From NCBI GenBank assembly GCA_041559575.1, contig JBFFDD010000003.1, positions 1-38,788 of the forward strand: a DNA stretch of 38,788 nucleotides, read 5' to 3'. The translations under genes were made by a program, and so were the position numbers. This document shows positions 1,003 to 26,714 of this stretch, in pieces; position 1 is the first letter of the stretch; each line of letters begins with the position of its first letter. The notes below the pieces were generated by a model. It was given only the letters and a program-made list of their open reading frames with translations. It did not search any database and had not been told where the DNA came from. This stretch comes from a bacterium (GTDB lineage Bacteria > BMS3Abin14).

Positions 1003-3011
<2,009 letters not shown>

Positions 3012-3015
<4 letters not shown>

Positions 3016-4529: not shown

Positions 4530-5563
4530 GTGACCATGTCCCTCAGGAAGGTCGCCGCGTCCTCCGGTGATGTGGGGTTGATGTGAAAGCCTGTGCCCCA
4601 CTCGAAGCCCGCCAGCATGGTCATGCGCGGGATCAGCTCCAGATACCAGTGATAGTCCATCTTGATGCTGCCCCAGTAGTCCGGTTTTTCGGGCCGCTTG
4701 ATCTGGGGGGGTGATGTGTGGAGGATGCAGTTGTAGGGCGGATCGTTGAGGACCTTCTTGAGCCTCTGGAGCACGTCCTTGACCACCACGGCCAGGTGCT
4801 GGAGAGTCTCTTCGTCCATGGTGCTGAAGTCGTGGTTGTGGGCTTTGGGCACCACGTTGAGCTGGAACGGGAAGCTCGAGGCGAAGGGCGCGAACACGAT
4901 GAACTTCTCCTCGTTGATGACGACCCTCCCTCCCTCCATCACCTCCTGGGAGATGATGTCGCACATGAGGCATCGCTCCTTCCGGGAGTAGTAGTCCCTG
5001 CAGCTGGCCAGCTCGGTGGCCACCATGTTCGGGGTGACCGGCATGCCGATTATCTGGGAGTGGGAATGGCACACCGATGCCCCCGCCTCAACCCCGTAAT
5101 TCTTGAAGAGCAGGATGTAGCGAAGCCGGTCGTCCCGCATGAGGTCCTTGAGGCGTTCCCGGTAGACGAAGAACACGTCCCGGAGTTGTTTGAGGTCGAA
5201 ATCGGCCATCTGCAGGGAATCGTCAGGCGTCTCGACGATGACCTCGTGGGCCCCGAACCCGGAGACCTCGTCGTAGATCCCCCTGCCGCGTCTCTCCTGG
5301 GGGCTCTCGATGGCCAGGGCCGGGAACTTGTTGGGGATCACCCGCACCGACCACCCGGGTTTATTGGGGGCGGTCCCGGACTCCCTGATGGCGAAGATCT
5401 CCGGCGGCGTCCGGTCCTCCTTGCCGGGACAGAAAGGGCAGGCCCGGGCGCCGGCTGCCATGGCCGGGTCTTCCCAGCGCTGGTAGTGGATGGGGCGGAT
5501 GGCCCTCTCGCTGGCAATGATCACCCATGTCTGTTTCAGGGGGTCGTAACGAAGTTCTGACAT
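4526..5563 (-). CDS. galT: GalT-like nucleotidyltransferase (galactose-1-phosphate uridylyltransferase family)
   Basis: MSELRYDPL, CPFCPG, NKFPAL, GAHEVIVETP, GASVCHSHSQ (HxHxQ), AGFEWGTG. Confidence 0.88.
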   Translation of the reverse strand: MSELRYDPLKQTWVIIASERAIRPIHYQRWEDPAMAAGARACPFCPGKEDRTPPEIFAIRESGTAPNKPGWSVRVIPNKFPALAIESPQERRGRGIYDEVSGFGAHEVIVETPDDSLQMADFDLKQLRDVFFVYRERLKDLMRDDRLRYILLFKNYGVEAGASVCHSHSQIIGMPVTPNMVATELASCRDYYSRKERCLMCDIISQEVMEGGRVVINEEKFIVFAPFASSFPFQLNVVPKAHNHDFSTMDEETLQHLAVVVKDVLQRLKKVLNDPPYNCILHTSPPQIKRPEKPDYWGSIKMDYHWYLELIPRMTMLAGFEWGTGFHINPTSPEDAATFLRDMVT

Positions 5564-5602
5564 GAAGCCTCCAATGGTTGTTCCAGGCCTTCCGGCAGGT
5601 TC

Positions 5603-7741: not shown

Positions 7742-7746
7742 CCCCT

Positions 7747-10236
7747 TTACCTCTGGAGGGTCCAGCGTCTGACACGCCGCTTCCAGAAGGACATCAGCTT
7801 TCTGGCCGCCGCGGCGTCGGTGGACTCGACGAAGAGGGTTACCCGGGGTCCGAAGGCGTCCGGCAGGAGCATGGCCCAGCCCTCCGGAAGGTGCACCTTG
7901 ATGCCGTCATCGTAGGAAACGTCACCACCCTCCACGGCCTGCCGGAAGTTCCTCATGACCAGCCCCTTCTGGTCAGGCGGGCAGACCAGGTCCGACCGGC
8001 TGAAGCCGTAGGCAGGCAGGGAGTCGAAGGCCGCCGACATGCGGCCCCCGCTTTCAGCAAGGGTCTCCAGCGTGGCGGCGATGGAGAACATCCCGTCCGC
8101 ATGTGGTCCGAAACGGGTAAAGGCATAGCGCCCGTTGAGGTCAGCGATAAGATCATACCGGGAGTACTCCTTCTGGGACAGGCGGGACAGCCGCCCTGTA
8201 TCCACCGTGAGGCCTTGAATGGAGGCGGCTGTCGTGAGGGGAGCCATGACCGGAAGGAACACCCGCCTGCGGCCTTTCTTCCGGGAGGCTTCCAGGGTCA
8301 TCAGGAACAGTATCGTTTGATGATCCTCCCACACGCGTCCCCTGTCGTCCACCACGAACATCCGCTCACCGGAGGGCGCCACGTAGAATCCCATGTCGGC
8401 TTTCAGGGACCGGACGATCTTTCCCACCTGTTTCAAGCTGCCGTGGACCAGGGTGGGGGATGCGGCGAGCTTGGTTTCGTCGCTGTGCGCGTTGATGATC
8501 ACCGTCTCACATCCCAGGTGGTTCATGAGGTCGGGCAGGATAACGGCGGAAGCGCCGTTGGCGAGGTCCAGGACGACCTTGAATTTTCTCTTCCTGACAA
8601 GTTCGGCGTCCAGGGATTTTAAAAAGTGCTCGCGGTAATAATCCAGCGCGAGGGGCATCTCCGTGATGGTTCCCACCTCGTTGTGATGGCTGCGGCGGAA
8701 ATTTTCCCGGAAAAAGATCCTCTCGATGTCCTTGGCCGACTCCTCCCCGATCTCGTACCCTTCGGAGTTGAAGAAAAGGATCTCGGTGGAGGTCTCGTCA
8801 CCCGGTTTCTGCCGAAAATGGACGCCGGCGACCTCACCGAAGGAGGTCAGCTTGTAACGGGTCACCGGAAGCGGCATGTGCCTGAGGTCCCTCACGGAGA
8901 CCCCCGTGGAGAGAACCCCGCCGAGGAACGACCGTTTGAGCATGCGGGAGGACTTGTGGCCGTCGCGGCTCACCAGGATGCTGTCGCCGGACCGGAACAA
9001 AGAGCCGAAGGCCTCTCCCAGCTTGGCGGTGAAACCCGAGTTCATCTCCTGATTGGTGTGTCCCGATATGGTGTTGCCCTCGAAGAGGCTCGCCCGCCAC
9101 CGGTCACCCCAGATGAGGTTGGATGAGAGCACGGAACCTGCCTCCACCAGTTTGCCCGGCCACAGCATGACGTCACGCACGATGGAAACGGCTTCCTCGA
9201 TGACCGTGTCCGAGGCGATGATGGCCCCCTCGGGGATGGAGGCCCCGTCTCCCATCCGGACGTTGTCGCACAGTACGGTGTTGGTCAGGCGGCAGTTACG
9301 GCCCACTGAGACGTTGCTCCAGATCACGCAGGATTCGATGTGTGAACCGGTGCCGATCTCGCTGCCGTCACCAATGACCGAATTCGAGTAGACACCTGCC
9401 GGCAGGCTGACCCCGGCGCCAAGGACGAGGGTCCCCTTGATGCGGGCCCTCCTCGACAGCGTCGAACCCTCACCGATCCACGCGGTCCCGCTTTCCGTCT
9501 CCAGCCGCTTTCCGGGAAAGGGGACATGGGTCCTGCCGGCGAAGATGTCCCGGTGGACATTGCGGTAGGACTCGGGGTTTCCGACGTCCCTCCAGTATCC
9601 TCTGGAAACGTGACCGAAAAGGGGCTTTTTGAGAGCCATGAGTCTGGGGAACAGGTCCCTGGAAAAATCGAAGCTGACCCCCTCGGGGATGTGGTCCAGG
9701 ACCTCCGGTTCCAGGACGTAGATCCCGGTGTTGATGGTGTCGCTGACCACCTCGCCCCAGCCGGGTTTCTCGAGGAAGTTCCTGATCCGCCCATCCTCTC
9801 CGGCGATGACCACGCCGAACTGAAGGGGGTTCGCTACGGGTGTCAGCGTCAGGGTGACCATGGCCCCGCTCCGCCGGTGGAAATCCAGCACCTCCTCGAG
9901 ATCGATATCTGTGACCAGGTCGCCGCTTACCACGAAGAAGGTTTCCCCGACCCTGTCGAAGGCGAATTTCACCGATCCGGCCGTGCCGTAATCGGCGTCA
10001 GGTACGATGTACCTCAACGCGGAGGATCCTTCCCAGATCTGGTTGAAGTAGTCGCGGATCTTCTCGGGCATGTAGTAGAGGAGAAGGGAGGTCTCCTGCA
10101 CCCCGATCCTGTCCAGGCTGTCCAGAACATACTCAATCATGGGCCGGTTGACCACAGGGAGCATTGGTTTTGGTATCGTTGCCGTTAGGGGTTGGATCCT
10201 TGTCCCGAAACCGCCGGCCAGAACCGCGGCCATCAT
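7747..10236 (-). CDS. NDP-sugar pyrophosphorylase (mannose-1-phosphate guanylyltransferase-like) with hexapeptide repeats fused to a phosphoglucomutase/phosphomannomutase-like module
   Basis: LAGGFGTRIQPLT..PKPMLP, GTAGSVK, FLEKP, INTGIY, YWRDVG, beta-helix region, then alpha-D-phosphohexomutase-like C-terminal half. Confidence 0.88.
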   Translation of the reverse strand: MMAAVLAGGFGTRIQPLTATIPKPMLPVVNRPMIEYVLDSLDRIGVQETSLLLYYMPEKIRDYFNQIWEGSSALRYIVPDADYGTAGSVKFAFDRVGETFFVVSGDLVTDIDLEEVLDFHRRSGAMVTLTLTPVANPLQFGVVIAGEDGRIRNFLEKPGWGEVVSDTINTGIYVLEPEVLDHIPEGVSFDFSRDLFPRLMALKKPLFGHVSRGYWRDVGNPESYRNVHRDIFAGRTHVPFPGKRLETESGTAWIGEGSTLSRRARIKGTLVLGAGVSLPAGVYSNSVIGDGSEIGTGSHIESCVIWSNVSVGRNCRLTNTVLCDNVRMGDGASIPEGAIIASDTVIEEAVSIVRDVMLWPGKLVEAGSVLSSNLIWGDRWRASLFEGNTISGHTNQEMNSGFTAKLGEAFGSLFRSGDSILVSRDGHKSSRMLKRSFLGGVLSTGVSVRDLRHMPLPVTRYKLTSFGEVAGVHFRQKPGDETSTEILFFNSEGYEIGEESAKDIERIFFRENFRRSHHNEVGTITEMPLALDYYREHFLKSLDAELVRKRKFKVVLDLANGASAVILPDLMNHLGCETVIINAHSDETKLAASPTLVHGSLKQVGKIVRSLKADMGFYVAPSGERMFVVDDRGRVWEDHQTILFLMTLEASRKKGRRRVFLPVMAPLTTAASIQGLTVDTGRLSRLSQKEYSRYDLIADLNGRYAFTRFGPHADGMFSIAATLETLAESGGRMSAAFDSLPAYGFSRSDLVCPPDQKGLVMRNFRQAVEGGDVSYDDGIKVHLPEGWAMLLPDAFGPRVTLFVESTDAAAARKLMSFWKRRVRRWTLQR

Positions 10237-13749: not shown

Positions 13750-14610
13750 ATGGCTAGATCACTCAGGGTTCAATATCCAGGAGCAGTTTACCACATTTCG
13801 TCCAGGGGAAATTCCAGACAGGATATCTATCTTGATGAAAAGGACAGGCTTCGGTTTCTGAAATTCCTGGACAGCACCATCAAGCGGTATGGATGGTCCT
13901 GCCATGCCTACTGTCTGATGACCAACCACTTTCACCTTCTTATTGAAACACCAGAACCGAATTTGGCTCCTGGGATGAAAAGACTCAATAGCCGTTATGC
14001 CCTGTCATTTAACAAGAGGCATCAAAGAATTGGTCATGTTCTTCAGGGCCGTTATCATTCCATCGTTGTCGAAAAACACAGCTATCTTTTGGAGTTGTGC
14101 CGGTATGTCGTATTGAATCCGGTTAGGGCGAAGCTTGTGGAGAATCCTGAAGAGTGGTTTTGGAGCAGCTATCGTGCCACGGTTGGGATCATAAGACCCG
14201 AGTCCTTTTTGACCGTTGACTGGATTCTTGGCCAGTTTGCAAAAGGAAAAAGGAACGCAGCGAGATTGTACGCTGATTTTGTCAGGCAGGGATACGATCG
14301 TTCACCGCCCTGGGAGCAGCTCGAAGGGGGTATTTTTCTGGGTGAAGAGGGTTTTGCGCAAACCGTTCGAGAGCAGTTCCTTGTGCGGTCCGATTCAGTT
14401 GCAGTCCCCCGTGTTCAACGAGGTGCAGGAAGACCGTCATTGGAAGACCTGTTCCCGAAATCCATCCTCAAGTGCAAATCCAGAAGGAACAGAAAAATCA
14501 CAGAGGCTTTTGAGTCACATCTGTATACCCAAAGTGAGATAGGCGATAAACTCAGGCTGCATCCAGCATCGATCTCGAGGATTATTAAAGACTGGAAAGG
14601 GAAATGTTAA
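13750..14610 (+). CDS. REP-associated tyrosine transposase-like (Y1/HUH, IS200-related) protein with C-terminal HTH
   Basis: YHISSRGN, HAYCLMTNHFHLL (HUH), GHVLQGRYHS, YVVLNPVRA (catalytic Tyr), WSSY, C-terminal YTQSEIGDKLRLHPASISRII. Confidence 0.92.
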   Translation: MARSLRVQYPGAVYHISSRGNSRQDIYLDEKDRLRFLKFLDSTIKRYGWSCHAYCLMTNHFHLLIETPEPNLAPGMKRLNSRYALSFNKRHQRIGHVLQGRYHSIVVEKHSYLLELCRYVVLNPVRAKLVENPEEWFWSSYRATVGIIRPESFLTVDWILGQFAKGKRNAARLYADFVRQGYDRSPPWEQLEGGIFLGEEGFAQTVREQFLVRSDSVAVPRVQRGAGRPSLEDLFPKSILKCKSRRNRKITEAFESHLYTQSEIGDKLRLHPASISRIIKDWKGKC

Positions 14611-14629
14611 AATACAAGCTACGACCCCA
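14604..14629 (-). repeat. right terminal inverted repeat (26 bp), contains the transposase stop codon
   Basis: Exact reverse complement of 13637-13662; TAA at 14608-14610. Confidence 0.93.
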
Positions 14630-14637
14630 AGAATTAG

Positions 14638-14868
14638 CTACCAGTTCTCAGGCGCCTTGGGAGGGTCGGGCCACTTCTCGGAATCGTACATGTTGTCATC
14701 CCGTTCCCAGCACTCCTTTGAGCAGAAGTGGACCGGCTCGAAAACGCAGCACCAGCCCGAAAAGCTGGTGTCGTAGGGATCCCCATCGATCTTGTGCCCG
14801 CACTGCTCGCACCACAGGTCCACAGTTCCGGTGTTGTTAAGGGTCGATTGCTTGAAGTTCGTTGACAT
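14638..14868 (-). CDS. small Cys-rich protein (TRASH/MYM-like metal-binding motif)
   Basis: 76 aa, CEQC...CC...HFCSKEC; GGAGG RBS 7 nt upstream of ATG; AT-rich upstream region. Confidence 0.7.
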   Translation of the reverse strand: MSTNFKQSTLNNTGTVDLWCEQCGHKIDGDPYDTSFSGWCCVFEPVHFCSKECWERDDNMYDSEKWPDPPKAPENW

Positions 14869-15114
14869 TGCGTCCCTCCCGTTTGATGGTCAAAGCGCAT
14901 ATCACCTTAGATTTAAGTATTATAAATTTAATATAATATGAAAATTCCGTTAAAAGCAAGGGAAAAATATCAGAATTTGCTAATATACCGATGCATCTTC
15001 GGAGGTGAGGATTTTCAAGCGGGCCGGAGTCAGGCGCAGGACCGGAAGCAGCCAGCCGGCTGTGACCAGTCTGTTTGGAACAATACGGGGAGGGTAGAGG
15101 CAGAAGGCAGGTTA

Positions 15115-16401
15115 TTAGGATGTCAGCTGGACCACTTCGGCGGCGGGCTTGATGAAATGCTGGCGCAGGCTCCACGTGTAGGCGCCCTGCCGGGGAAGGA
15201 GGAGGACGTCGCCCGGTTCGATTCCGTCCCCGAAGTAGGACCACCCCCAGACGTCGTGCGGTGTGCACAGAGAGCCGGCGATGAGGCAGGGACGCTCCTC
15301 CAGGGAGGGCCGGCTGAGGTTGATGACCGGCACGTAGTCGGTCTCGTAGCGTTCCCACCCCACGATGTTGGTCCCGGCGTCGGCGATGACCAGGTCGTCG
15401 GCCTTCCGGTCCGCCACACGGATCAGGATGTGCATGGCGTCGTTGACGATCCACCGCCCCGGCTCGGCGTAAACGACAGGGGAGGCGAGGGGGAACACCT
15501 GCTCGTGGAGTGCCCGGGAGATCTCCCGGGCGAAATCGTCGATGGGCGCCGCCTCCAGGCTCCGGTGCCCCCTTAGACTGATAGCATCTTCCGGTGAAGG
15601 TCTTTCCTCTGTCAACAGCCACTCTCCGTCAGAGGGCCAGTAGCCTCCGCCGATGTCCAGGAAGCATAGGGACTCCAGTTGCGTTGGGTCGAGATCCCGC
15701 AGAGCACCCCCAAGGCGGTGGATGAAGCCGACCTGGGCTTCCGGGGTGAGGTTCCAGCTGGTGTGGAACTGGAGGCCTTTAAAAATGATGTTGGGGCAGG
15801 CGGCTGACCGGTCCAAAAAAGATCTCAACCGGGACAGGGGGATACCGAACTTGCGCCACAGACCCTCTTCCTGGGTGGTGAGCCTTACCCCGGCGGTAGC
15901 CGTCACACCAATCCTGCGGGCAGCCTCCTGGAGACCATCCAGTTCGGCGAAACTGTCCATGAGGACAGTAACCCGGTCATGGTGTTCCGCTGCCAGATCG
16001 AGTTCCCGGGCTATCTTGCCGGGGCCGGAGAAGAGGATCCGGCGGCAGCCGGTCTCGAGGGCCATCTTCAGTTCGATGCCGCTGGACACCTCCAGGCCGA
16101 GCCCTGAACGGACAGCCTCGGCCGCCACCAGGGGATGGTTGCTGCACTTAACGGCGAAGAACGCCTCAAAGGCCGGGAGCCGCTCATTGAAAGCGGCGAG
16201 GAAGGAACGGGCCCTGTCCCTCAGGACGGGCGCTTCGAAGAGATAGACGGGTGTTCCCTTTTTGCGGGCCAGTCCCTCCATTTCCCGGGCCCGGTGGAGG
16301 AACCCTCTGACGAGGTCCCTGACCTGGCTCCGGGGTCCCTGGTTCAAGGGCGCTGCGGAGAAAAGAGCGCCCGCGGGATGTTCTTGCGGCACACCGGTCA
16401 T
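15115..16401 (-). CDS. PLP-dependent decarboxylase, diaminopimelate/ornithine decarboxylase (fold type III) family
   Basis: FAVKC (PLP Lys), FSGPGK, KFGI, LDIGGG, EPGR, GSLC..HD, GAY. Confidence 0.88.
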   Translation of the reverse strand: MTGVPQEHPAGALFSAAPLNQGPRSQVRDLVRGFLHRAREMEGLARKKGTPVYLFEAPVLRDRARSFLAAFNERLPAFEAFFAVKCSNHPLVAAEAVRSGLGLEVSSGIELKMALETGCRRILFSGPGKIARELDLAAEHHDRVTVLMDSFAELDGLQEAARRIGVTATAGVRLTTQEEGLWRKFGIPLSRLRSFLDRSAACPNIIFKGLQFHTSWNLTPEAQVGFIHRLGGALRDLDPTQLESLCFLDIGGGYWPSDGEWLLTEERPSPEDAISLRGHRSLEAAPIDDFAREISRALHEQVFPLASPVVYAEPGRWIVNDAMHILIRVADRKADDLVIADAGTNIVGWERYETDYVPVINLSRPSLEERPCLIAGSLCTPHDVWGWSYFGDGIEPGDVLLLPRQGAYTWSLRQHFIKPAAEVVQLTS

Positions 16402-17681
16402 GAGGCGATCTCCACCTCCGCCAGGGCCTCCAGGCCAGAACCTTCCTCGGCGAGCCGGTTTCGGTCCCGGGGCCGGAAGACGATGTGGCCAAGAATGCGC
16501 GAGAAGTAATCATGGGGGGGAAGAGACACCACGTGGCCCGGCTGCCTGTAGAGCACGACCTCGAGCACTCTCGGGTCCGCCTGGAGACGTCCGTTGGCCA
16601 GGCTTCTCAGAAGACCCTCCCGGCGGGCGAACAGGCGGAACGCGGCCAGGGAATAATGGGATTCGAGGGGTTGCAGCGAAGTCGGCCGGTCCTCGGCCAG
16701 ATCCAGGGCCAGTCCCAGGGTGTCGATGCCGCTGCTGGACCTGACCAGCCAGGGGAGACAGTCGCCCGCCGGCCGCGCCGAGACCTCCAGGAAATAGGGG
16801 CGTCCTCGATGAACGATGAAGTCGGCCATGAAAATGCCCCTGTCGAATCCCAGGGCTCTGGCAGCGTTACGGAGGTGGATCTCCAATTCCCTCTGGCCGA
16901 TGCCCGTTTCCTCGATGTCAGCAACGTAATAGATCAGAGCCGTTCCCGTCCCGATCTCAGGGGCCAGGACCTTGCCGGACAGCCGGACGAGCTGCGCGCG
17001 GCGGCCCGAAAGGATGAAATCGCAGCTGAATTCGGGACCGGTAAATCCCTCTTCCACGACAACATCCTGCTTCGGGTCCAAACCCTGGCCCGGAGAGGAT
17101 AGGTTCTGATACATCCGATCATCCGGATGATCGGCCAATATTCTGGTGATGATCCGAAATGCCTTCCTGGCGTCCTCACGTTTCTGGCACCAGAAGACCA
17201 GTTCACTGCCGGACCCGGTTAGCGGCTTGAGCACCAGGGGCAGACCCAGCTTGTCCATGGCCCCCTCGAGCCCGTCCCTGTCTCTCACAGTCAGGGTCCT
17301 CGGACAGGAAACCTCTGACCGGAGCCACGCCCGTTTGGAGTGAAACTTGCTCCGGCTCGTCCTGATCGACTCCGGCGAATGAAAGGGGAGGTTCCAGATA
17401 TTGGCAAGATCGGAGGCGAGGATCAGGGATTCGTCGTCGTAACAGGCGATACCGCTCAGTTCGATGCCGTAGCGGGCAAGGTGACTGTCCACGGCCTTGG
17501 CCGCCACCCTGGTGTGGCGCAGGTCTACAGTGATCTCCTCCTCGGGGCCCGGCCGCTCCTCCGCAGCCGCCTGCCGCAATCTTTCATCGGTGAGGAAGAC
17601 GGCGCGCCCCGGATATCTCTTTCTTATGATGTCCACGTAATCCGGGGTTGTGCCGGTCACCAGGGCCCGTTTAATGCTCAT
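16398..17681 (-). CDS. ATP-grasp ligase (L-amino acid ligase-like)
   Basis: VLKPLTGSGSELV, VVEEGFTGPEFSCD, FLEVSARPAGD; start set at ATG 17681 with AAGGAG RBS. Confidence 0.85.
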   Translation of the reverse strand: MSIKRALVTGTTPDYVDIIRKRYPGRAVFLTDERLRQAAAEERPGPEEEITVDLRHTRVAAKAVDSHLARYGIELSGIACYDDESLILASDLANIWNLPFHSPESIRTSRSKFHSKRAWLRSEVSCPRTLTVRDRDGLEGAMDKLGLPLVLKPLTGSGSELVFWCQKREDARKAFRIITRILADHPDDRMYQNLSSPGQGLDPKQDVVVEEGFTGPEFSCDFILSGRRAQLVRLSGKVLAPEIGTGTALIYYVADIEETGIGQRELEIHLRNAARALGFDRGIFMADFIVHRGRPYFLEVSARPAGDCLPWLVRSSSGIDTLGLALDLAEDRPTSLQPLESHYSLAAFRLFARREGLLRSLANGRLQADPRVLEVVLYRQPGHVVSLPPHDYFSRILGHIVFRPRDRNRLAEEGSGLEALAEVEIAS

Positions 17682-17694
17682 GGGAATCTCCTTT

Positions 17695-18609
17695 TCAGGC
17701 CGCCTGAGTGCCGGTGTCGGCCAGAAGGTACAGGGGGCGCTCCTGAAGGTGAAACATCTTCTTCCAGTTGAAATCGCCGCACAGGAAATCCACCTCGTGA
17801 AACCTCTCCTCGCAGGCGCGATGCATGTGATGCAGATTGATGAGCTTGGCGATGCCCGGAAAGCGAGGGTTGGTGCCCCCCGCCATGAGGGAGTAGACAC
17901 CGCGGTAAAGAACCCCCACGTCCACGGCGGCAATATCCCCCGCAACCAGGGCCGTCGTCACTCTGAGCCAGCCTTGCCGGGCAAAGAAAAGGACCATGCC
18001 CCTGAAACCTCTTCGAAAGCGGGGATCACTGAAGTACGAGTCGCTGCCGAAGCGGGAGACGTTCATGGCCACCATGGAATCGAAATCCTCGATCCGGTCG
18101 TAACGCCACGCGATGCCCCTGGCCTCAATGGCCTCCACCTCGTGCCGGATCCTCTTGGCCGACTTGCCGGAAAACCGCTTCATGTATCGGCTGAACTCGT
18201 AATCGAAGAGGGGGGGGCGGAACAGATAGCCCACCTCGTCCACCGTCCTGCTCCCCGGTAGGATGGTGGAACGGGGTGACAGATAGCGTATGTGGAAGGG
18301 GCCCGGGACAGCAGCCAGCAGACGTTCAAGGTCCGTGGCAGTCAGGATGTTCTGCTCCAGCCAGGTCCTGCCCTTGTATGTCTCACCGGGAAAGAAGGAG
18401 TAGCATCCCTGCTCCTCCACCCAGCAGAGGGGAAGCAGCCCGGACGGGCGGCCTCCGGTCTCCTCGACCAGGAAATGAAGGGGCCTTGCGAAGTGCCGGT
18501 GAAAGGAGGCGCGCACCTCCCACAGATCGGTGACCATCTCGCTGGGGATAATGGTCTCCCAGAGGTATCTGGCCTCCTCAAGTTCCCGGACGACGCGTAT
18601 ACCGTTCAT
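17695..18609 (-). CDS. GNAT-fold acyl/aminoacyl transferase (Acetyltransf_6-like)
   Basis: FSGKSAKRIRHE, YSLMAGG, GIAKLINLHHM..AC, VDFLCGDFNWKKMF C-terminal pattern. Confidence 0.78.
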   Translation of the reverse strand: MNGIRVVRELEEARYLWETIIPSEMVTDLWEVRASFHRHFARPLHFLVEETGGRPSGLLPLCWVEEQGCYSFFPGETYKGRTWLEQNILTATDLERLLAAVPGPFHIRYLSPRSTILPGSRTVDEVGYLFRPPLFDYEFSRYMKRFSGKSAKRIRHEVEAIEARGIAWRYDRIEDFDSMVAMNVSRFGSDSYFSDPRFRRGFRGMVLFFARQGWLRVTTALVAGDIAAVDVGVLYRGVYSLMAGGTNPRFPGIAKLINLHHMHRACEERFHEVDFLCGDFNWKKMFHLQERPLYLLADTGTQAA

Positions 18610-18611
18610 TT

Positions 18612-19013
18612 CTATCTCCGGAAGGTGACGTTGGTCTCCACCCTCGATCCGCCGAAATAAAGGCGGGCGAACTGGGCCACGACTTCAGGGTCGTAGGGTT
18701 TGCAGCTGAAGACATCAAGATACGTCGTGTTCGTAAGGTTGGCGAAGTGCGCCGAGATCAGGGAGGTCTCGATGAGCTGGACCATGGAGTAGCCGGCGAC
18801 CTTCTCGTCTTCCCCGAAATGGATCACCTGTGTCTCACCGAAACGTTTCATCTCGATGAGATCGCACAGTTCGACCACGAATCGACGGATGGCGTCCGGG
18901 TCCCGGATGGTTTCCGGACTGCAGTCGTAGATGTCGATGGCCGTAGCAATTCCCCACACGTTGTCAGCGGCGGCGCGCTCCGGCACGCTCATGGTTACGG
19001 GCTGAATTCCCAT
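18612..19013 (-). CDS. speD: S-adenosylmethionine decarboxylase-like pyruvoyl proenzyme
   Basis: IDIYDC, GYSMVQLIETSLISAHF, YLDVFSCKPYD; AGGAGG upstream of ATG 19013 (track start 19088). Confidence 0.85.
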   Translation of the reverse strand: MGIQPVTMSVPERAAADNVWGIATAIDIYDCSPETIRDPDAIRRFVVELCDLIEMKRFGETQVIHFGEDEKVAGYSMVQLIETSLISAHFANLTNTTYLDVFSCKPYDPEVVAQFARLYFGGSRVETNVTFRR

Positions 19014-19084
19014 GATCTCTTTTTTCCTCCTGTCATCTCCGCCGGTGGCCTGCGGCCTTGCCGCTGAACAGGCGTTGGGGCCGG

Positions 19085-19747
19085 TCACCGCTGGTTCTCA
19101 TCCTGACGGAGAGCGTCGCCGATGAACCGCGTCATGCTGTTCACCAGGGCCCCCCTCAGGGACTGTAGATTGGAGTCCACGTCATCGTCCTCAGAGGCGA
19201 TGACGGCGAACGAGTAATAGCCGGAAAGGAAACCCGCCACGGCGCAGCCGATGCGCCGCAGAAGGGGCTTGTCGAGGCGCTGCCTGACCACGGAGTCCAC
19301 CAGCGCCTCGATGGACTCCAGATACTCGATAAAGGGCGGTTCCAGACCGGAATACCCCTCTTGGAGCTTCAGGTCGGCGCGCCCCTGGTAGTAGAGGACG
19401 AAATCCTCCCACCGGGAACTGAAGAAATCGATGTGGGCCTGGATGATCGATTCCAGAAGGGAGGTCAGGTAGTGGGCTCCACGGCATCGTTCCTCCATGA
19501 GCGATACAAGCTCTCCCAGAACCTGCCTGATCTGCTGGGCGACGATCTCGTTTTTGTCCGCGAAGTGGTAGTAGAAGGTGCCCTTGCCGACATCCGCCCG
19601 CTGGGTGATGTCGTCGATGGTGGTCAGATCCATCCCCTTCTCGGCGAAAAGCTCCCTGGCCGCTTTCAGGAGCCGTCGGCGGGTAGCCCGAAGCTTCCTG
19701 TTCTGGCGGGTGATCTGTTTTCCGGGCTCCCTGTCGACAACTACCAT
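19085..19747 (-). CDS. TetR/AcrR family transcriptional regulator
   Basis: LLKAARELFAEKG...TTIDDITQRADVGKGTFYYHFADK HTH. Confidence 0.95.
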   Translation of the reverse strand: MVVVDREPGKQITRQNRKLRATRRRLLKAARELFAEKGMDLTTIDDITQRADVGKGTFYYHFADKNEIVAQQIRQVLGELVSLMEERCRGAHYLTSLLESIIQAHIDFFSSRWEDFVLYYQGRADLKLQEGYSGLEPPFIEYLESIEALVDSVVRQRLDKPLLRRIGCAVAGFLSGYYSFAVIASEDDDVDSNLQSLRGALVNSMTRFIGDALRQDENQR

Positions 19748-19774
19748 AACGTTTCCTCTCGTCCGTGATTTTTT

Positions 19775-19806
19775 TGACTAAATAGTCATAAATGACCAAA
19801 TAGTCA
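19775..19806. promoter_or_regulatory. tandem palindromic operators, probably for the adjacent TetR
   Basis: TGACTAAATAGTCA (19775-19788) and TGACCAAATAGTCA (19793-19806), 28-59 nt upstream of the tetR start. Confidence 0.78.
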
Positions 19807-19979
19807 ATAATAAAATAACCGTTTTTTATTTTTATTTTGGGGTGGGCAGGGAGGGTGGTCGGAAAAGAAAATATCCTTTAAATCAAGCTTGTTGGACTGG
19901 ATCAATGAAAGGGCCTCGGGGCGTTTACCTTCGGCAGGGATCTCTTTTTCCGGCCTCCGGGAGGGGAAGATTCGGACGT

Positions 19980-20013
19980 AAAAAAGCCCGGCTCATTTCG
20001 AGCCGGGCCTTTT
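19980..20013 (-). terminator. intrinsic terminator downstream of pyruvate carboxylase genes (possibly bidirectional)
   Basis: GCCCGGCTC-ATTTC-GAGCCGGGC 9-bp stem with A6 on the left (U6 on minus strand) and TTTT on the right. Confidence 0.8.
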
Positions 20014-20099
20014 ACATTAGTATGAGTGGAAGGAGGACCCGGATTATGTTCCCCGCTCCATTATTTTTGTGACCAAAAACTTCAAACTGTAAACTTTTT

Positions 20100-22121
20100 C
20101 TATCCTTCCTCCTCCAAAACGAACAGCAGCTGGTTTTCGATCACCGGTTCGTTCAGTCCGATGCAGATCTCGGCGATCCGTCCCCCCATGGGGGCGGCGA
20201 TGATGTTCTCCATCTTCATGGCCTCGATGTTGGCGATCTCCTCACCCTCGTGGACGATGTCCCCCACCGCGATGTCCCCCCGCTTGGGGTTGCCCATCCG
20301 CCACACCGATCCGGTGATGGGCGATCCGACCTCGTTGGGGGCCTTGGCCATGCGGATCTCCGCCTTCACCACCCGCGGCGTCTCCACCGTGAACACCTTG
20401 GCCTGATTGTTGATCCTGAGGACCACCGGGATGTAGCCGTCGTGTTCGTCACCCACCGAGACCCTCTCGATGGTGTGCGGCTTGTCCCTCATCAGGAAGT
20501 CCACGCTGTCGCCGGGGCGGGTGAGCCCGGAGTGCCACACCTCGGTGGGCAGGACTATGGGGGCCTCCCCGTACTCCTCGCGGAACTCGATCATCTCCAC
20601 CGTGTCCTTGGGGTGCATGAGAAAGAGGATGAACTCTTCCTCGGTGGGCTGCCACCCCAGCCTGGCGGCCAGGTCCTCCCTCAGGGCATCGAGATCCTCC
20701 TCCTCGAGGGCGTCGAGGGGCGATTCGTCGGTCCTCCGGGCCAGGTTGTCCTTCCACTGGTCGCCGAAAGCGCTCTGGTAGACCCAGTCCGCCGGCCAGC
20801 CGGCGGGAAGTCTTCCGTATCCTCCCAGGATGAGGTTCTTGAAATCCCCCGGTGCGGTGACGAAGAACTCCATGAGCTCCTCCCTCTCCTCCGGGTCCAG
20901 CCGGTCCAGGTCCTGGTCGACCTCCTCGGTGAATTTCTTCAGCAGGGCGATGAGGCGGTTGACGCCCGTGATGCCGAACTCCTTGGCGTACCGGTTGACG
21001 GTGCCGCTGCAGGTGACCCAGGTCATCTGGCTTCCCGGGGTTACGTCGAAGTAGTGGACGATGCGGTTGTAAAGGGACATCACCTGAAGGATCTGGGGCA
21101 TCAGGTGGAGGAACCCGCCCCTCTCGGCCTGTTCGAAAGAGCTGGGAAAGGCGCCGCCGGGCATCCGGTGCTGGACCACGTTGTGGTCGAACCCCTTGAA
21201 GGGCGACTCGGCCCATCCGTACTGGCGCACCCAGTCCCGGGCCTTCTGGACGGCGGCCTCCGCTTCCGGACGGTTCAGGAGCACCGGTATTCCCGCCTCC
21301 TCGAGGTAGGCGTGGAGGGACAGGATGGGGGCCTGACCGTAGAAACGGGTCAGGGAGTCCTCCTGGGCGTCCAGCAGCTTGGCGCCGGCCTGGGCCGCGG
21401 CCAGCAGGGCGGGGAGGGCGAGGCCGTCGGTGGAGTGGCGGTGGTACTGGACGACCGCCTCCGGGTACTTCTGCAGGATGGCGTCCACCAGTTCCCGGAT
21501 CCTCTCCGGGCTGCCCACCCCGGCCATGTCCTTGATGCACAGGACGACCTCGTCCACGCCGCTGCACAGGTCCACCATGTCGTCGACCACCCCGAGGTAG
21601 TAGTCGTTGGTGGCCCAGTCCGCCTGGGTGAAGGACACGGAGGGCTCGAAGAGCAGGCCCCTCTCCATAACCACCTCGCAGATGGTGCGCATGTTCCGGA
21701 CGTCGTTGAGGAAGGAGAAGCACCGCCAGACGTCGATGTCCACCTTGGACACCACGTATTCGATGACGTTCCTGGGATAGGGCCGGTAGCCCCACAGGCT
21801 GGTCTCCCGGATGAGGGTCTGGAGGAGAACGCCGGGCATCCTCTCGCGGAGGATGGCCGTCTCCTCGAAGGGGCTCTCCCTGCGGTTGAGGATCCCCACG
21901 TGCCAGCGGGCCCCCCCGTGGACCTCGGCCGAGAACAGGTTCATCCGTTCGTAGTGGGGAGCCAGGGTGGCCTGATCGTGGATCCTCAGCCGGTTCTTGT
22001 AGTCCGACTGCCCGGCGTCCCTCATGCCGGTGGAGGTGAGGGCCACCCCGGGCAGGGAGCGGACGGTGTTGACGATCTCGGAGGGGGACATGCCGGGTTT
22101 GAAAACCATCTGATCACTCAT
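20100..22121 (-). CDS. pycB: pyruvate carboxylase-type carboxyltransferase + biotin carrier subunit
   Basis: MRDAGQS, CIKDMAG, HRHSTDG, MPGG, VTPGSQ, C-terminal EAMKMEN biotinylation motif. Confidence 0.85.
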   Translation of the reverse strand: MSDQMVFKPGMSPSEIVNTVRSLPGVALTSTGMRDAGQSDYKNRLRIHDQATLAPHYERMNLFSAEVHGGARWHVGILNRRESPFEETAILRERMPGVLLQTLIRETSLWGYRPYPRNVIEYVVSKVDIDVWRCFSFLNDVRNMRTICEVVMERGLLFEPSVSFTQADWATNDYYLGVVDDMVDLCSGVDEVVLCIKDMAGVGSPERIRELVDAILQKYPEAVVQYHRHSTDGLALPALLAAAQAGAKLLDAQEDSLTRFYGQAPILSLHAYLEEAGIPVLLNRPEAEAAVQKARDWVRQYGWAESPFKGFDHNVVQHRMPGGAFPSSFEQAERGGFLHLMPQILQVMSLYNRIVHYFDVTPGSQMTWVTCSGTVNRYAKEFGITGVNRLIALLKKFTEEVDQDLDRLDPEEREELMEFFVTAPGDFKNLILGGYGRLPAGWPADWVYQSAFGDQWKDNLARRTDESPLDALEEEDLDALREDLAARLGWQPTEEEFILFLMHPKDTVEMIEFREEYGEAPIVLPTEVWHSGLTRPGDSVDFLMRDKPHTIERVSVGDEHDGYIPVVLRINNQAKVFTVETPRVVKAEIRMAKAPNEVGSPITGSVWRMGNPKRGDIAVGDIVHEGEEIANIEAMKMENIIAAPMGGRIAEICIGLNEPVIENQLLFVLEEEG

Positions 22122-23585: not shown

Positions 23586-24025
23586 ACCGATTACCTCTCC
23601 TCTCCTCTGGCTGGAGAATACCTTTCAGGTGTGGAACGGTTGCAGAATCCCTTACCCGGTTCGGTCGCTTCCCGAAGGGCCGTTCTCTCGATGGAGATAG
23701 TTTTGATGATGCTTCAGGACTAGGATCGTTGCCTGATTTTTCCTGAGAAGCTGAATATACTAGATGTCCCTGTGGCATAAAGCAAGGGCAAAGACGGAGG
23801 TGCTGGAAGGTCCCGGTCACCCCGCTGCCGATTGCGCCGCCGCACGAATAGTGCTAGTTTCCTGTTCCCAGTGTGGGAACCCCGGCAGGTAAAAAGATCG
23901 GTGTATGTCGAGGAAGTCCTCCTCCATGGGGAGGGTGCGGGTGGTTACGCTTTTTCCAAAAACCTGAAATAATATCTCCAGCCGCATCCGCCGTTTACTG
24001 TTATCCTCAGCTGCTGGTCGACATT

Positions 24026-25615
24026 ATGGAAGACAAAGACAGACAAAACATCATCCTGACCGGATTCATGGCCACCGGGAAAACCATCGTCGGCAGAAAC
24101 CTGGCTTCCCAGCTCGGCTATGAATTCATCGATACCGACGAGGTGATCGAGTCACGGATCGGCATGACCATCGCCGAATTTTTCAAGGAAAAGGGCGAGG
24201 CCGCCTTCCGGAAGATGGAGTCGGACCTTGCCCGGGAGCTTGCGGATCGGAGGGGCCTGGTCATTTCAACCGGCGGCCGGTTCATGCTGGACCCGGACAA
24301 TGCCGCCGCACTGGGCAGGACCGGCCGGGTCTTCTGTCTGGTGGCGACCCCGGAGGAGATCCTCGAGCGCGCCGAGGGCGACACCCACGTCCGCCCGCTG
24401 CTTCAGGTGCCCAACCCCCTGGAGAATATCGTCGAGCTGCTGCAGCAGCGAAAGGAGGGTTACGGGCAGTTTCCCCAGCTAGTCACGTCAGAAAAAACCC
24501 CGGAGACCCTCGCCGGGGACCTGGCGGGGGTCATAGCCGGAGGGCCGGACGTCCGTCTCCCCATCGCGGCTCCTTACGAACGCTACGAGTTTATCGTCGG
24601 CGGGGGGCTCCTGCCGTTCCTTTCCCACCTGGCGGCAGTTGACGGCCCCATCGCCATCATAACCGACGACAACGTCGGCCCCCTGTACGCGAAGAGCTGC
24701 GGCTCCGTCGATGTGGTGATCACCACACCGCCGGGCCGGCAGCACAAGACCCTGGCAACCGCCCAGTCCATCTGCGAGCAGTTGATCGACGCGGATTTCG
24801 ACCGCAGCGGTACCATCGTCGCCCTCGGCGGCACGGTGATCAGTGAGCTGGCCGGCTTCATCGCCGCGACCTATATGCGGGGGGTCGACTGTGTGCAGTG
24901 CCCGACCAGCCTGCTGGCCATGGTCGATACCAGCATCGGCGGAAAGACGGGTGTCGATCTGCCCCAGGGCAAGAACCTGATCGGCGCCTTCAAACAGCCG
25001 AAAACGGTGATCGCCGATGTGGCTACCCTGCAGAGCCTTCCCCCCAGGGCGTTCGCGTCCGGCATGGCCGAGGTCATCAAGCACAGCCTCATCGCCGATT
25101 CGGACCTGCTCGGCAAGATCGAATCGGGAAACTGGGTCCGCACCGCCGGGGAGATCCAGCAGCAGGCAGCGGAACTCCAGGCGCTGGTCGCCCAGGCCAT
25201 CCAGGTCAAGATCAACATCGTTCAGGAGGACCCCTTTGACCACGGCCGCAGGGCGGTGCTGAATTTCGGCCACACCTTCGCCAACGCCATCGAACGTCTC
25301 AGCCGTCACAGGGTCAGTCACGGTGAGGCCGTGGCCATGGGCATGGTCGTATCCTCCCATCTCTCCGCGCAACTGGGCTACTGCCCTGGGGAACTTACAG
25401 AGAGGATCGAAGCGGTCCTGACTTCGGCGGGCCTTCCCACCCGGATCCCCGCCGAACTGTCTCCGGACAAACTGCTCGAGGCCATGAGAACAGACAAAAA
25501 GAAGAGGGCTGGAAAGCTGCATTACGTGCTGCTGAAAAATATCGGTGACGTCTTTGTGACCGATCAGGTCCCGGAAGAAAAAGTGCTTTCAACCCTCGCA
25601 GTCCTGAATTCCTGA
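24026..25615 (+). CDS. aroKB: bifunctional shikimate kinase / 3-dehydroquinate synthase-like fusion
   Basis: GFMATGKT P-loop, GEAAFR, STGG, RPLL; then PTSLLAMVDTSIGGKTG, KNLIGAFKQP, GMAEVIK, LNFGHT, HGEAVA. Start set at ATG 24026. Confidence 0.88.
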   Translation: MEDKDRQNIILTGFMATGKTIVGRNLASQLGYEFIDTDEVIESRIGMTIAEFFKEKGEAAFRKMESDLARELADRRGLVISTGGRFMLDPDNAAALGRTGRVFCLVATPEEILERAEGDTHVRPLLQVPNPLENIVELLQQRKEGYGQFPQLVTSEKTPETLAGDLAGVIAGGPDVRLPIAAPYERYEFIVGGGLLPFLSHLAAVDGPIAIITDDNVGPLYAKSCGSVDVVITTPPGRQHKTLATAQSICEQLIDADFDRSGTIVALGGTVISELAGFIAATYMRGVDCVQCPTSLLAMVDTSIGGKTGVDLPQGKNLIGAFKQPKTVIADVATLQSLPPRAFASGMAEVIKHSLIADSDLLGKIESGNWVRTAGEIQQQAAELQALVAQAIQVKINIVQEDPFDHGRRAVLNFGHTFANAIERLSRHRVSHGEAVAMGMVVSSHLSAQLGYCPGELTERIEAVLTSAGLPTRIPAELSPDKLLEAMRTDKKKRAGKLHYVLLKNIGDVFVTDQVPEEKVLSTLAVLNS

Positions 25616-25628
25616 TTTGGGACCTGTC

Positions 25629-26714
25629 GTGGCTTTGAGCGTCGTCAACGTTGAACTGGGTGAACGGTCCTACTCCATCCACATTGGAGGCGGGGCCTGG
25701 GACCTTCTCGAGGAATATCTGCGCGGTTGGAATCCGGCCGGCAGGATCATGATGGTGACGGACGAACGGGTGAACTCCATCTATGGCCGCCGAATCAATC
25801 AGCTGGCAGGTGCCTGCGGGACACCCGCAGCAGTCGTGGCTGTTCCGGAGGGAGAGGGGAGTAAATCCTTCAGTCACCTGGAGGATCTTTGCAGGAAGAT
25901 GGCTGGTGCCGGCCTGGACAGGAACTCCCTGGTTGTTGCCCTGGGAGGCGGGGTAGTGGGGGATCTCGCGGGTTTGGCAGCCTCCATATACCTTCGGGGG
26001 GTGTCCGTCGTTCAGGCCCCGACCACCCTCTTGGCCATGGTGGACAGCAGCACTGGGGGCAAGACCGGGATCAACATCCCGGAGGGGAAGAACCAGGTCG
26101 GCGCCTTTCATCAGCCGGAGGCGGTGTTCGCTGAAATCGACGTTCTGAAGACCCTCGACCCGAGGGACTGGCACTCCGGCATGGCAGAGGTGATCAAGAT
26201 CGCCTTGACCCTCGATCCGGAGCTCTTCGAATACCTTGAGGGGATTCCCGATCTCGGGCCGGGAGGGGACGTGGATATAAGCCGCGTTGTGACATCAGCC
26301 TGTCGGAGAAAGGCTGAGATCATAGAGGCCGACGAGTGGGAGTCGGGGCCCCGCCTGGTTCTCAATTTCGGACACACGCTGGCCCATGCCCTGGAGGCGT
26401 CCACGAGTTACGGGGAGATCCGCCACGGCGAGGCGGTCCTGTTGGGGATGAAGGCCGCCATGGTCCTGTCCAGGAAGGTCTGCGGCCTGCCGGATGACCA
26501 ATTCGAAAGGGCCGTGAGGGTCCTGGACCGCATTCCCGTGCCGCCGGTGAAGCTGGGGGAGGATCTGAACGGCTACATGACCCGGGACAAGAAGCGGTCC
26601 GGTGGGCGGGTTCAATCCGTGCTCCTCGACCGGATCGGCCAGTGCCGCATCGTACCGCTCGACGATCCGGGGGACCTCATAAGATCACTTGAGTCCATTC
26701 AGCCCACGGGTTGA
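25629..26714 (+). CDS. aroB: 3-dehydroquinate synthase
   Basis: GEGSKS, GGGVVGDLAG, PTTLLAMVDSSTGGKTG, KNQVGAFHQP, LNFGHTLAHALE, HGEAV, DKK. Start uncertain (25617 or 25629). Confidence 0.92.
   Translation: MALSVVNVELGERSYSIHIGGGAWDLLEEYLRGWNPAGRIMMVTDERVNSIYGRRINQLAGACGTPAAVVAVPEGEGSKSFSHLEDLCRKMAGAGLDRNSLVVALGGGVVGDLAGLAASIYLRGVSVVQAPTTLLAMVDSSTGGKTGINIPEGKNQVGAFHQPEAVFAEIDVLKTLDPRDWHSGMAEVIKIALTLDPELFEYLEGIPDLGPGGDVDISRVVTSACRRKAEIIEADEWESGPRLVLNFGHTLAHALEASTSYGEIRHGEAVLLGMKAAMVLSRKVCGLPDDQFERAVRVLDRIPVPPVKLGEDLNGYMTRDKKRSGGRVQSVLLDRIGQCRIVPLDDPGDLIRSLESIQPTG

Follow-up and report, generated by a model that had tools for sequence, protein, structure and literature searches.

An operon of five genes lies on the minus strand of a 38,788-nucleotide (nt) stretch of bacterial DNA (GTDB lineage BMS3Abin14; GenBank assembly GCA_041559575.1, contig JBFFDD010000003.1, positions 1 to 38,788), which is referred to below as the window. 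The genes encode a TetR-family regulator, a protein with the fold of S-adenosylmethionine decarboxylase (AdoMetDC), a GNAT-fold transferase, an ATP-grasp ligase and a fold-III decarboxylase that depends on pyridoxal 5'-phosphate (PLP). The first of them is preceded by two tandem palindromes. The coordinates, given in window positions together with protein lengths in amino acids (aa), are as follows:

19793–19806 and 19775–19788: putative TetR operators, two tandem 14-bp palindromes (TGACCAAATAGTCA and TGACTAAATAGTCA, respectively) whose starts are 18 bp apart
19747–19085, minus strand: TetR gene, 220 aa, first gene of the operon
19013–18612, minus strand: AdoMetDC-fold gene, 133 aa, with GGAGG preceding the ATG
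18609–17695, minus strand: GNAT gene (Acetyltransf_6), 304 aa
17681–16398, minus strand: ATP-grasp gene, 427 aa
16401–15115, minus strand: fold-III PLP decarboxylase gene, 428 aa

A gap of 71 nt separates the TetR gene from the AdoMetDC-fold gene, for which an alternative GTG start at 19088 would give a protein of 158 aa. Downstream of this the spacing narrows to 2 nt before the GNAT gene (18610–18611) and 13 nt before the ATP-grasp gene (17682–17694), and the ATP-grasp and PLP decarboxylase genes share the sequence ATGA in a 4-nt overlap (16398–16401). The description of five co-oriented and tightly packed genes in a first-pass annotation of this DNA is therefore in agreement with both coordinates and spacings. 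Domains of all five proteins exceeded their Pfam gathering scores. Neither a spermidine synthase nor a transporter gene was found within the operon by Pfam, again as had been noted, and a spermidine synthase gene, speE, is present elsewhere in the genome. Rfam families all stayed below their gathering scores, both in the window and in 8 related loci, and none of the PADLOC families was matched by the five operon proteins (E ≤0.001).

The tandem operators that the annotation had placed upstream of the operon were recovered as putative sites at a frequency above chance. The palindrome motif occurs at 2 sites in the window compared to 0.16 expected, a count that was equalled in none of 100 shuffles, and its tandem form is unique within the 2.9-Mb genome. 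The tandem palindromes overlap a TTGACT hexamer resembling a -35 element (19807–19802, minus strand). A promoter scan of the minus strand upstream of tetR returned no sigma-70 consensus, and the TTGACT/TATTTA pair that can be read there by eye is weak.

A four-gene cassette conserved across phyla

In a pattern scan of one genome each of 185,579 species, relatives of the AdoMetDC-fold protein were found to be encoded at 461 places, distributed according to record titles over at least 12 phylum-level groups. Among these are Thermodesulfobacteriota, Planctomycetota, Ignavibacteriales, Omnitrophota, Zixiibacteriota, Krumholzibacteriota, Lentisphaeria, Hydrogenedentota, Deferribacteraceae, Nitrospirota, Fibrobacteraceae, Sumerlaeota and GN15. 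The best 80 of the 461 places were taken as loci for all counts given below, with open reading frames (ORFs) of at least 80 aa being called. The order SpeD-like protein, GNAT, ATP-grasp, PLP decarboxylase was observed in 67 of the 80 loci. In the remaining 13, a contig end is reached within 212 nt in ten cases and after 517 and 830 nt in two; a single locus (L087) truly lacks the partner genes. Three kinds of fusion between members of the set were also found. GNAT and ATP-grasp are fused in four protein clusters of 752–783 aa, one of which is 41% identical to the window ATP-grasp protein over its full length. ATP-grasp and PLP decarboxylase form a single 856-aa ORF with no internal stop in a Phycisphaerae record. 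The PLP decarboxylase is fused to a SpeD-like protein in three clusters, one of them 44% identical to the window PLP enzyme over 416 residues. As neighbouring pairs are also found fused, the four enzymes can be taken to act in one pathway. The four enzyme genes thus constitute one conserved functional unit that travels together in one order across phyla, and the conservation of gene neighbourhood on which the first-pass annotation had made its candidate pathway depend was indeed found. A further protein, P0270 (626 aa), was considered as a GNAT fusion and not counted, as it aligns to ATP-grasp in fragments only, in the manner of a frameshifted sequence. At loci L026, L027 and L066 the ATP-grasp or PLP decarboxylase match is split into two to three pieces, similar to what frameshifts or assembly errors produce.

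The distribution of the cassette is patchy. The GNAT family is small, with 428 of 1.84 billion cluster representatives matching at E ≤0.001, and even sampling of one phylum found the GNAT marker gene in 15 of 301 genomes; plasmids gave no tblastn match to the GNAT. Within the family to which the window belongs, the marker was found in 6 of 15 other genomes, and 6 cassette loci were identified in 5 genomes. The five-gene order is intact in four of these loci, in four genomes. The fifth, a second copy in one of these four genomes, has its TetR reduced to the C-terminal half, and in the sixth the enzyme genes have decayed and TetR is missing. Two copies of the cassette are carried by genome G002 (loci L012 and L013). 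The PLP decarboxylase is reduced to residues 27–183 at locus L014 (genome G010), while at locus L016 (genome G004), which has no TetR gene, a deletion has fused ATP-grasp residues 4–119 to PLP decarboxylase residues 109–426. Near-complete DNA copies of the operon carry the source labels sediment, soil, marine-sediment metagenome or metagenome (14 runs, 10 studies).

Regulation of the cassette takes two forms. The window TetR (Pfam TetR_N, 61.9 bits; best NCBIfam model the ScbR family at 59.4 bits, cut-off 150) combines a TetR-type helix-turn-helix domain with putative operators at its own promoter, as is characteristic of its family. A TetR gene precedes the cassette in the same position in 21 of the 80 loci; upstream of tetR, TGAC-N6-GTCA palindromes are found in 15 of these 21, with six having two or three of them 18 bp apart. 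The protein is probably an autoregulated repressor. In 42 of the 80 loci a divergently transcribed sigma-54 activator gene is instead located within 1.5 kb upstream, and a TGGC-N8-TGC[AT] motif precedes the first gene in 36 of the 59 loci without TetR, where a hand estimate gives about one as the chance expectation. The TetR control proposed for this operon accordingly stands for the window, with its TetR and palindromes, as the minority version of a unit that elsewhere is more often associated with a sigma-54 activator. The sigma-54-like motif lies 90–400 nt upstream of the first gene (e.g. L022, L023 and L036), leaving a long leader; as the leader has no Rfam match in the 8 related loci scanned, no known riboswitch lies between motif and gene. 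A joined tree of the three larger enzymes was built from the 47 loci, window included, that have full-length copies of all three. All 10 TetR-type rows fell into one clade of 15 rows (Shimodaira–Hasegawa-like approximate likelihood ratio support 99). Since different phyla are represented in this clade, the cassette and its regulator seem to have been transferred as one.

The encoded enzymes and their closest relatives

The AdoMetDC-fold protein was recognised by the Pfam model AdoMet_dc at 81.9 bits. Although it is only 23% identical to the canonical SpeD encoded elsewhere in the same genome, its residues S84, H89 and C104 align with the serine, histidine and cysteine of that enzyme, that is, with the processing serine and the catalytic residues that define class 1b AdoMetDC (S63, H68 and C83 in T. 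maritima). Together with Q79, T83, F90 and Y98 they are invariant in 33 sequences, as is the central stretch QLIETSLISAHFAN...YLDVFSCK. Score, alignment and invariance together assign the protein to the class 1b fold, and self-cleavage is predicted between T83 and S84. Its conservation is remarkable: outside the family its relatives have a median identity of 74% to the window protein, its three partner enzymes reaching 46%, 38% and 49%. A search of the PDB by sequence gave no match to it (E ≤0.01).

Longer relatives provide the link to a characterised activity. Among the best 120 such matches, the ETS motif is present in all 120, and the canonical ES[HL] site is present in addition in 81, these 81 being SpeD proteins fused to an ETS-type domain. 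Domains of the fused forms are 53–72% identical to the window protein. One fusion, encoded beside speE at locus L096, measures 278 aa when read from the first internal methionine, has serines at positions 79 and 229, and possesses a C-terminal domain that is 61% identical to the window protein. In the 278-aa SpeD1SpeD2 protein of Desulfotignum, AdoMetDC activity requires S79 and L-ornithine decarboxylase activity requires S229 (Li et al., J Biol Chem 2023, PMC10407285), and the ETS-motif serine of the L096 fusion at position 229 corresponds to this published S229. The same paper describes a glutamine, a threonine, a phenylalanine and a tyrosine in the central region as diagnostic of the SpeDC ornithine decarboxylases. 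In the window protein Q79, T83, F90 and Y98 stand in that order around S84 and H89, a correspondence of residue order. Due to this order of residues and the two serines of the fusion, the window protein was read as SpeDC-type. It is probably an 'ETS'-motif, pyruvoyl-dependent L-ornithine decarboxylase that gives putrescine. The label 'AdoMetDC-like' in the first-pass annotation holds for the fold and most likely not for the activity, the ETS/SpeDC-type residues pointing to ornithine rather than AdoMet as the substrate.

The features shared with SpeDC, as far as these are set out in the published text, are the class 1b fold, the Ser/His/Cys set, the threonine immediately preceding the serine, and the central glutamine, phenylalanine and tyrosine. 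By activity, SpeDC enzymes are defined as accepting L-ornithine and leaving AdoMet, arginine and lysine untouched. The genetic setting is different: the published SpeDC genes are described from polyamine clusters with speD/speE, casdh/casdc or hss (PMC10407285), the main text of which contains neither 'ATP-grasp' nor 'GNAT', whereas the window gene is found in a GNAT/ATP-grasp/PLP-decarboxylase cassette and its product belongs to a clade of its own. ETS-type SpeD domains were also observed in many Leptospira proteins of 284–288 aa (among P0134–P0213), joined to a SET domain (PF00856+PF02675). SET domains are also encoded by separate genes in 4 of the 80 loci, at a distance of a few kb on the upstream side of the cassette, for example at 2034–2453 of locus L082.

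The GNAT protein (Pfam PF13480, Acetyltransf_6, 77.6 bits) was modelled by AlphaFold2 with a mean predicted local distance difference test score (pLDDT) of 92.4. The model has the double-GNAT fold of FemABX-like transferases, in which the substrate cleft is formed where the two domains meet. Among solved structures it is most similar to Sba18 (Z 17.6, root-mean-square deviation (rmsd) 3.7, 260 residues aligned), followed by Sbb17 (Z 17.3), FemX (Z 17.1), FemA and, at Z of about 15, MprF. Enzymes that depend on aminoacyl-tRNA fill the top 21 rows of the structural ranking (Z 17.6–14.5); a protein without known function comes next in row 22 (Z 14.3), and tandem GNATs that use acyl-CoA reach at most Z 14.1. 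By sequence, the PDB gave chance-level matches only, and relatives in the ESM Atlas carried only generic 'GNAT family' names. Judged by the modelled fold, the protein probably transfers an aminoacyl (or acyl) group to an amine. Sbb17 and Sba18 are described as aminoacylating a soluble small-molecule amine (PMC12945691). With the streptothricin-type enzymes Orf11, Sbb17 and Sba18 and with FemABX the window protein shares a double-GNAT architecture of about 300 aa (Z 17.6–16.5; PDB 9wqy, 9wqw and 1ne9), differing from them in sequence, to which it is just 10–13% identical. Near its C-terminus W282-K283 is invariant. The pair recalls the aromatic-lysine pair F328-K329 of DhpH-C and Lys305 of FemX.

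The ATP-grasp protein exceeded the cut-off of its Pfam model by a small margin (ATP-grasp_4, 27.8 bits, cut-off 27), and its AlphaFold2 model has a pLDDT of 93.4. The best structural match is an L-amino acid ligase from Bacillus licheniformis (3vot; Z 36.0, rmsd 3.2, 395 residues aligned), roughly 5 Z units above the next family, with RizA at Z 30.8 and YwfE at 30.4. The model thus has the three-domain fold of the L-amino acid ligases, an enzyme of which type was also matched by phmmer (E 8.4e-6); Pfam LAL_C2 remained below its cut-off (17.2 bits against 29.4). The modelled structure is closest to an L-amino-acid-ligase-type enzyme. In common with BL00235, RizA and YwfE/BacD it has the full-length ATP-grasp architecture. 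It differs in sequence, with an identity of 16–18% and the low LAL_C2 score, and likely in its nucleophile, which would be an amine such as putrescine in place of a second amino acid.

Fold-III PLP decarboxylases contain a PLP-binding lysine, a glycine-rich phosphate loop, an EPGR motif and a C-terminal cysteine. All four are represented in the window enzyme (Pfam Orn_Arg_deC_N, 72.8 bits) as FAVKCSN, DIGGGY, EPGRW and GSLCTPHD, which are conserved in 61 sequences, and the lysine aligns with that in LKANN of BtrK. BtrK is also its best match by sequence in the PDB (68.2 bits), and LCTP.D is common to both proteins at a position where diaminopimelate decarboxylase (DAPDC) has CES.D. On these motifs the PLP enzyme is a decarboxylase of fold III (the alanine-racemase fold), BtrK/DAPDC-like and not the housekeeping LysA. 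In the formation of the butirosin side chain, BtrJ, an ATP-grasp enzyme, works together with BtrK, a PLP decarboxylase. The window operon resembles that system in pairing an ATP-grasp ligase with a DAPDC-like PLP decarboxylase and in LCTP.D; it differs in having no genes for an acyl carrier protein, a monooxygenase or aminoglycoside synthesis. Carboxyspermidine decarboxylase is an example of a polyamine route in which ligation is followed by decarboxylation. In this route and in that to rhizoferrin the last step on an ornithine- or putrescine-based molecule falls to a fold-III PLP decarboxylase, the rhizoferrin enzyme being FslC, an N-citrylornithine decarboxylase (NF041039, PDB 7kh2) that is a detectable relative of the window enzyme (42.4 bits by NCBIfam, 57.6 bits in the PDB sequence search). 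The window operon differs from both routes in lacking a dehydrogenase and an NRPS-independent siderophore (NIS) synthetase, bond formation being assigned here to the ATP-grasp and FemX-fold enzymes.

Surroundings of the operon

Terminator-like hairpins were found on either side of the operon:

19985–20008, minus strand: terminator-like hairpin with a T-run, an inverted repeat 3' of the upstream pycB, marking the upstream boundary of the operon
14750–14770, minus strand: terminator-like hairpin, by consensus match only, about 345 nt past the stop codon of the PLP decarboxylase gene, a possible end of the operon

The upstream neighbours were identified by Pfam as PycA and PycB. Inclusion of pycA and pycB in the unit was considered and rejected, as they are shared only with the locus from the same genus. 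Directly downstream of the operon there is an IS200-like Y1 transposase gene (Pfam Y1_Tnp, 13750–14610, plus strand) and the GC content falls to 0.478 in 14001–15000; transposase gene and GC dip may indicate that DNA was inserted here or that an acquired segment ends at this point. Further away, a fusion of shikimate kinase and 3-dehydroquinate synthase (580 aa) followed by a dehydroquinate-synthase-like gene (365 aa) occupies 23873–26714 on the plus strand. A glycogen-type cluster at 1003–10236 on the minus strand contains genes for a branching enzyme, a 686-aa starch-synthase-like protein, a GH57 protein and an 829-aa fusion of nucleotidyl transferase, hexapeptide-repeat and phosphoglucomutase domains.

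A candidate pathway and its alternatives

We consider it somewhat more probable than an even chance that the operon represents, under TetR repression, a widespread and self-contained cassette of four enzymes whose product is an amide derived from putrescine. The pyruvoyl SpeDC-type enzyme would convert L-ornithine to putrescine or, alternatively, decarboxylate an ornithine-containing intermediate. The ATP-grasp enzyme would use ATP to join an amino acid carboxylate, probably the side-chain carboxyl of glutamate or aspartate, to an amine. Removal of the α-carboxyl group from the tethered amino acid by the BtrK-like PLP decarboxylase would then produce a new terminal amine, and the FemX-fold GNAT would place an aminoacyl group, probably taken from aminoacyl-tRNA, on a free amine. 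The result would be a small, amide-linked pseudo-polyamine or peptidyl-amine based on putrescine. TetR would bind the two palindromes that overlap the promoter and let go upon binding a ligand, a role taken by a sigma-54 activator in most other lineages. The product class suggested by the first-pass annotation, an acylated or peptidyl polyamine-like metabolite, is an inferred one that fits the folds of the enzymes.

The possibility that a housekeeping SpeD and LysA merely lie side by side, unrelated to each other, can be given very little credence. Relatives of the first protein are called 'S-adenosylmethionine decarboxylase' in source annotations, and lysA (TIGR01048) is the best NCBIfam model for the PLP enzyme. 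The scores nevertheless fall far short of the equivalog cut-offs, reaching 27.9 bits against 75.65 for the SAM decarboxylase model TIGR03330 and 112 bits against 297.9 for lysA. The motifs deviate as well: the AdoMetDC-fold protein reads IETS...HFAN where the SpeD of the same genome reads AES...HTWPE, and the PLP enzyme reads LCTPHD where the DAPDCs 2yxx and 1twi have LCES.D. In addition, a canonical SpeD (145 bits, AdoMet_dc) adjoins speE on contig C185 and a canonical LysA-like gene (Orn_Arg_deC_N, 223 bits) is located on contig C13. As the canonical copies are found elsewhere in the genome, the operon decarboxylases are not plain SpeD and LysA, so that the outcome which would have deprived the first-pass annotation of its joint pathway did not arise; the strict synteny and the fusions further bind the four genes together. 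The canonical polyamine genes on C185 (locus L097, 749–2476) comprise SpeD (138 aa), a 160-aa ORF and SpeE (276 aa). The SGSSEGY stretch of the 160-aa ORF resembles, we presume, pyruvoyl arginine decarboxylase.

A different use of the same four enzymes would be the assembly of a double-headed intermediate. Here ATP-grasp would join two amino acids via their side chains, for example the γ-carboxyl of glutamate to the δ-amine of ornithine, each decarboxylase would remove one α-carboxyl group, with the SpeD-like protein acting on the conjugate, and the GNAT would cap the resulting diamine-amide. The existence of fusions between the PLP decarboxylase and the SpeD-like protein speaks in favour of this, as does FslC, a fold-III enzyme that decarboxylates an N-acylated ornithine. 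The high median identity of the SpeD-like protein relative to its partners would fit a tightly constrained, specialised role. In a tree of 45 rows, taken as every third 'near' and every second 'longer' match, the cassette-type SpeD-like proteins moreover form a clade separate from the fused domains of the validated type (local support 95). The active-site stretch is, however, nearly the same as that of the ornithine decarboxylase-type domain fused to SpeD (QLIETSLIS.HFAN...YLDVFSCK), which argues for the same substrate, and we regard the double-headed route as unlikely. Improbable too is a carrier-tethered scheme of the butirosin type, in which ATP-grasp would load glutamate onto a carrier encoded elsewhere, the BtrK-like enzyme would decarboxylate it and the GNAT would move the aminoacyl chain to putrescine or another acceptor. 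BtrK, an L-glutamyl-[BtrI acyl-carrier protein] decarboxylase according to the titles of PDB entries 7ru7 and 2j66, is the best solved relative by sequence with LCTP.D in common, and the ATP-grasp and decarboxylase genes overlap and in one lineage are fused. No carrier gene was seen among the recurrent neighbours of the 80 loci, where a flanking carrier shorter than the 80-aa calling limit could have been missed, and the gaps within the cassette are too short to hold one; the ATP-grasp model is also closest to ligases of free amino acids. Envelope modification, finally, would have the decarboxylases supply diamines, and ATP-grasp and the FemX-like enzyme place either these or an amino acid on peptidoglycan precursors or a lipid. 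Support for it comes from FemX, FemA and MprF, modifiers of cell-wall precursors and lipids, being among the nearest structural relatives of the GNAT. We hold it to be quite improbable: no cell-wall, lipid or membrane gene recurs beside the cassette, none of the four proteins matches a membrane-protein family in Pfam, and a soluble small-molecule amine is the substrate of Sba18 and Sbb17, which lead the structural ranking (PMC12945691). The patchy occurrence and decay of the cassette likewise suit an accessory metabolite better than a wall component.

Several observations weigh against the putrescine-amide pathway as drawn. Both the order of the steps and the choice of amino acids are guesswork. 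Agreement with the diagnostic SpeDC residues is based on the text of the published study and on the serine positions, and the separate clade of cassette-type SpeD-like proteins implies that these may act on something other than free ornithine. A ranking of folds does not distinguish with certainty between aminoacyl-tRNA and acyl-CoA as donor (Z 17.6 versus 14.1), and the match of the PLP enzyme to BtrK is modest at 68 bits, near those to DAPDCs (59–62 bits). Counting the window, 2 of 7 cassette copies in its family have decayed, so that the cassette is dispensable there, and the genes that recur beside the cassette in the 80 loci include no transporter, carrier or further enzyme. Weakly in favour of the pathway, RNA libraries of 3 studies contributed contigs that map to the operon, in nearly every case with a likeness of at least 99%, and some span the TetR/SpeD-like, SpeD-like/GNAT and GNAT/ATP-grasp junctions. 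The ATP-grasp/PLP-decarboxylase junction is unspanned and 14500–15081 and 19738–20300 are uncovered, although such holes prove nothing. As evidence of expression these contigs are weak, because the libraries can hold DNA and the contigs do not show single transcripts.

In the open full-text literature, which leaves subscription journals outside its scope, no paper describing this gene set was found, in line with the first-pass annotation, in which the operon was not recognised as a characterised pathway. The cassette is a new combination of known enzyme families. With low confidence we propose that it may represent a new class of amide-linked polyamine analogues, in which putrescine is extended, possibly repeatedly, by ligation of glutamate or aspartate and decarboxylation, giving 4-aminobutanoyl or β-alanyl units, and then receives a tRNA-dependent aminoacyl cap. 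Such compounds would be widespread accessory metabolites of bacteria living in sediments, with anaerobic groups accounting for many of these, and would be switched on by a sigma-54 activator in most lineages and sensed by a dedicated TetR in some.

At just 4 kb, self-contained and with two simple regulatory versions, the cassette is directly accessible to heterologous expression, and a biosensor for the product could be had directly from TetR and the 14-bp operators. The occurrence of relatives of its first gene at 461 places in at least 12 phylum-level groups amounts to a wide spread. If the proposed pathway is true, SpeDC enzymes would have a further biological role besides that in the classical routes to spermidine and homospermidine, and a tRNA-dependent small-molecule amide synthase would operate in primary or accessory metabolism, beyond the antibiotic clusters of actinomycetes. 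It would also point to a new polyamine-like compound in sediment bacteria.

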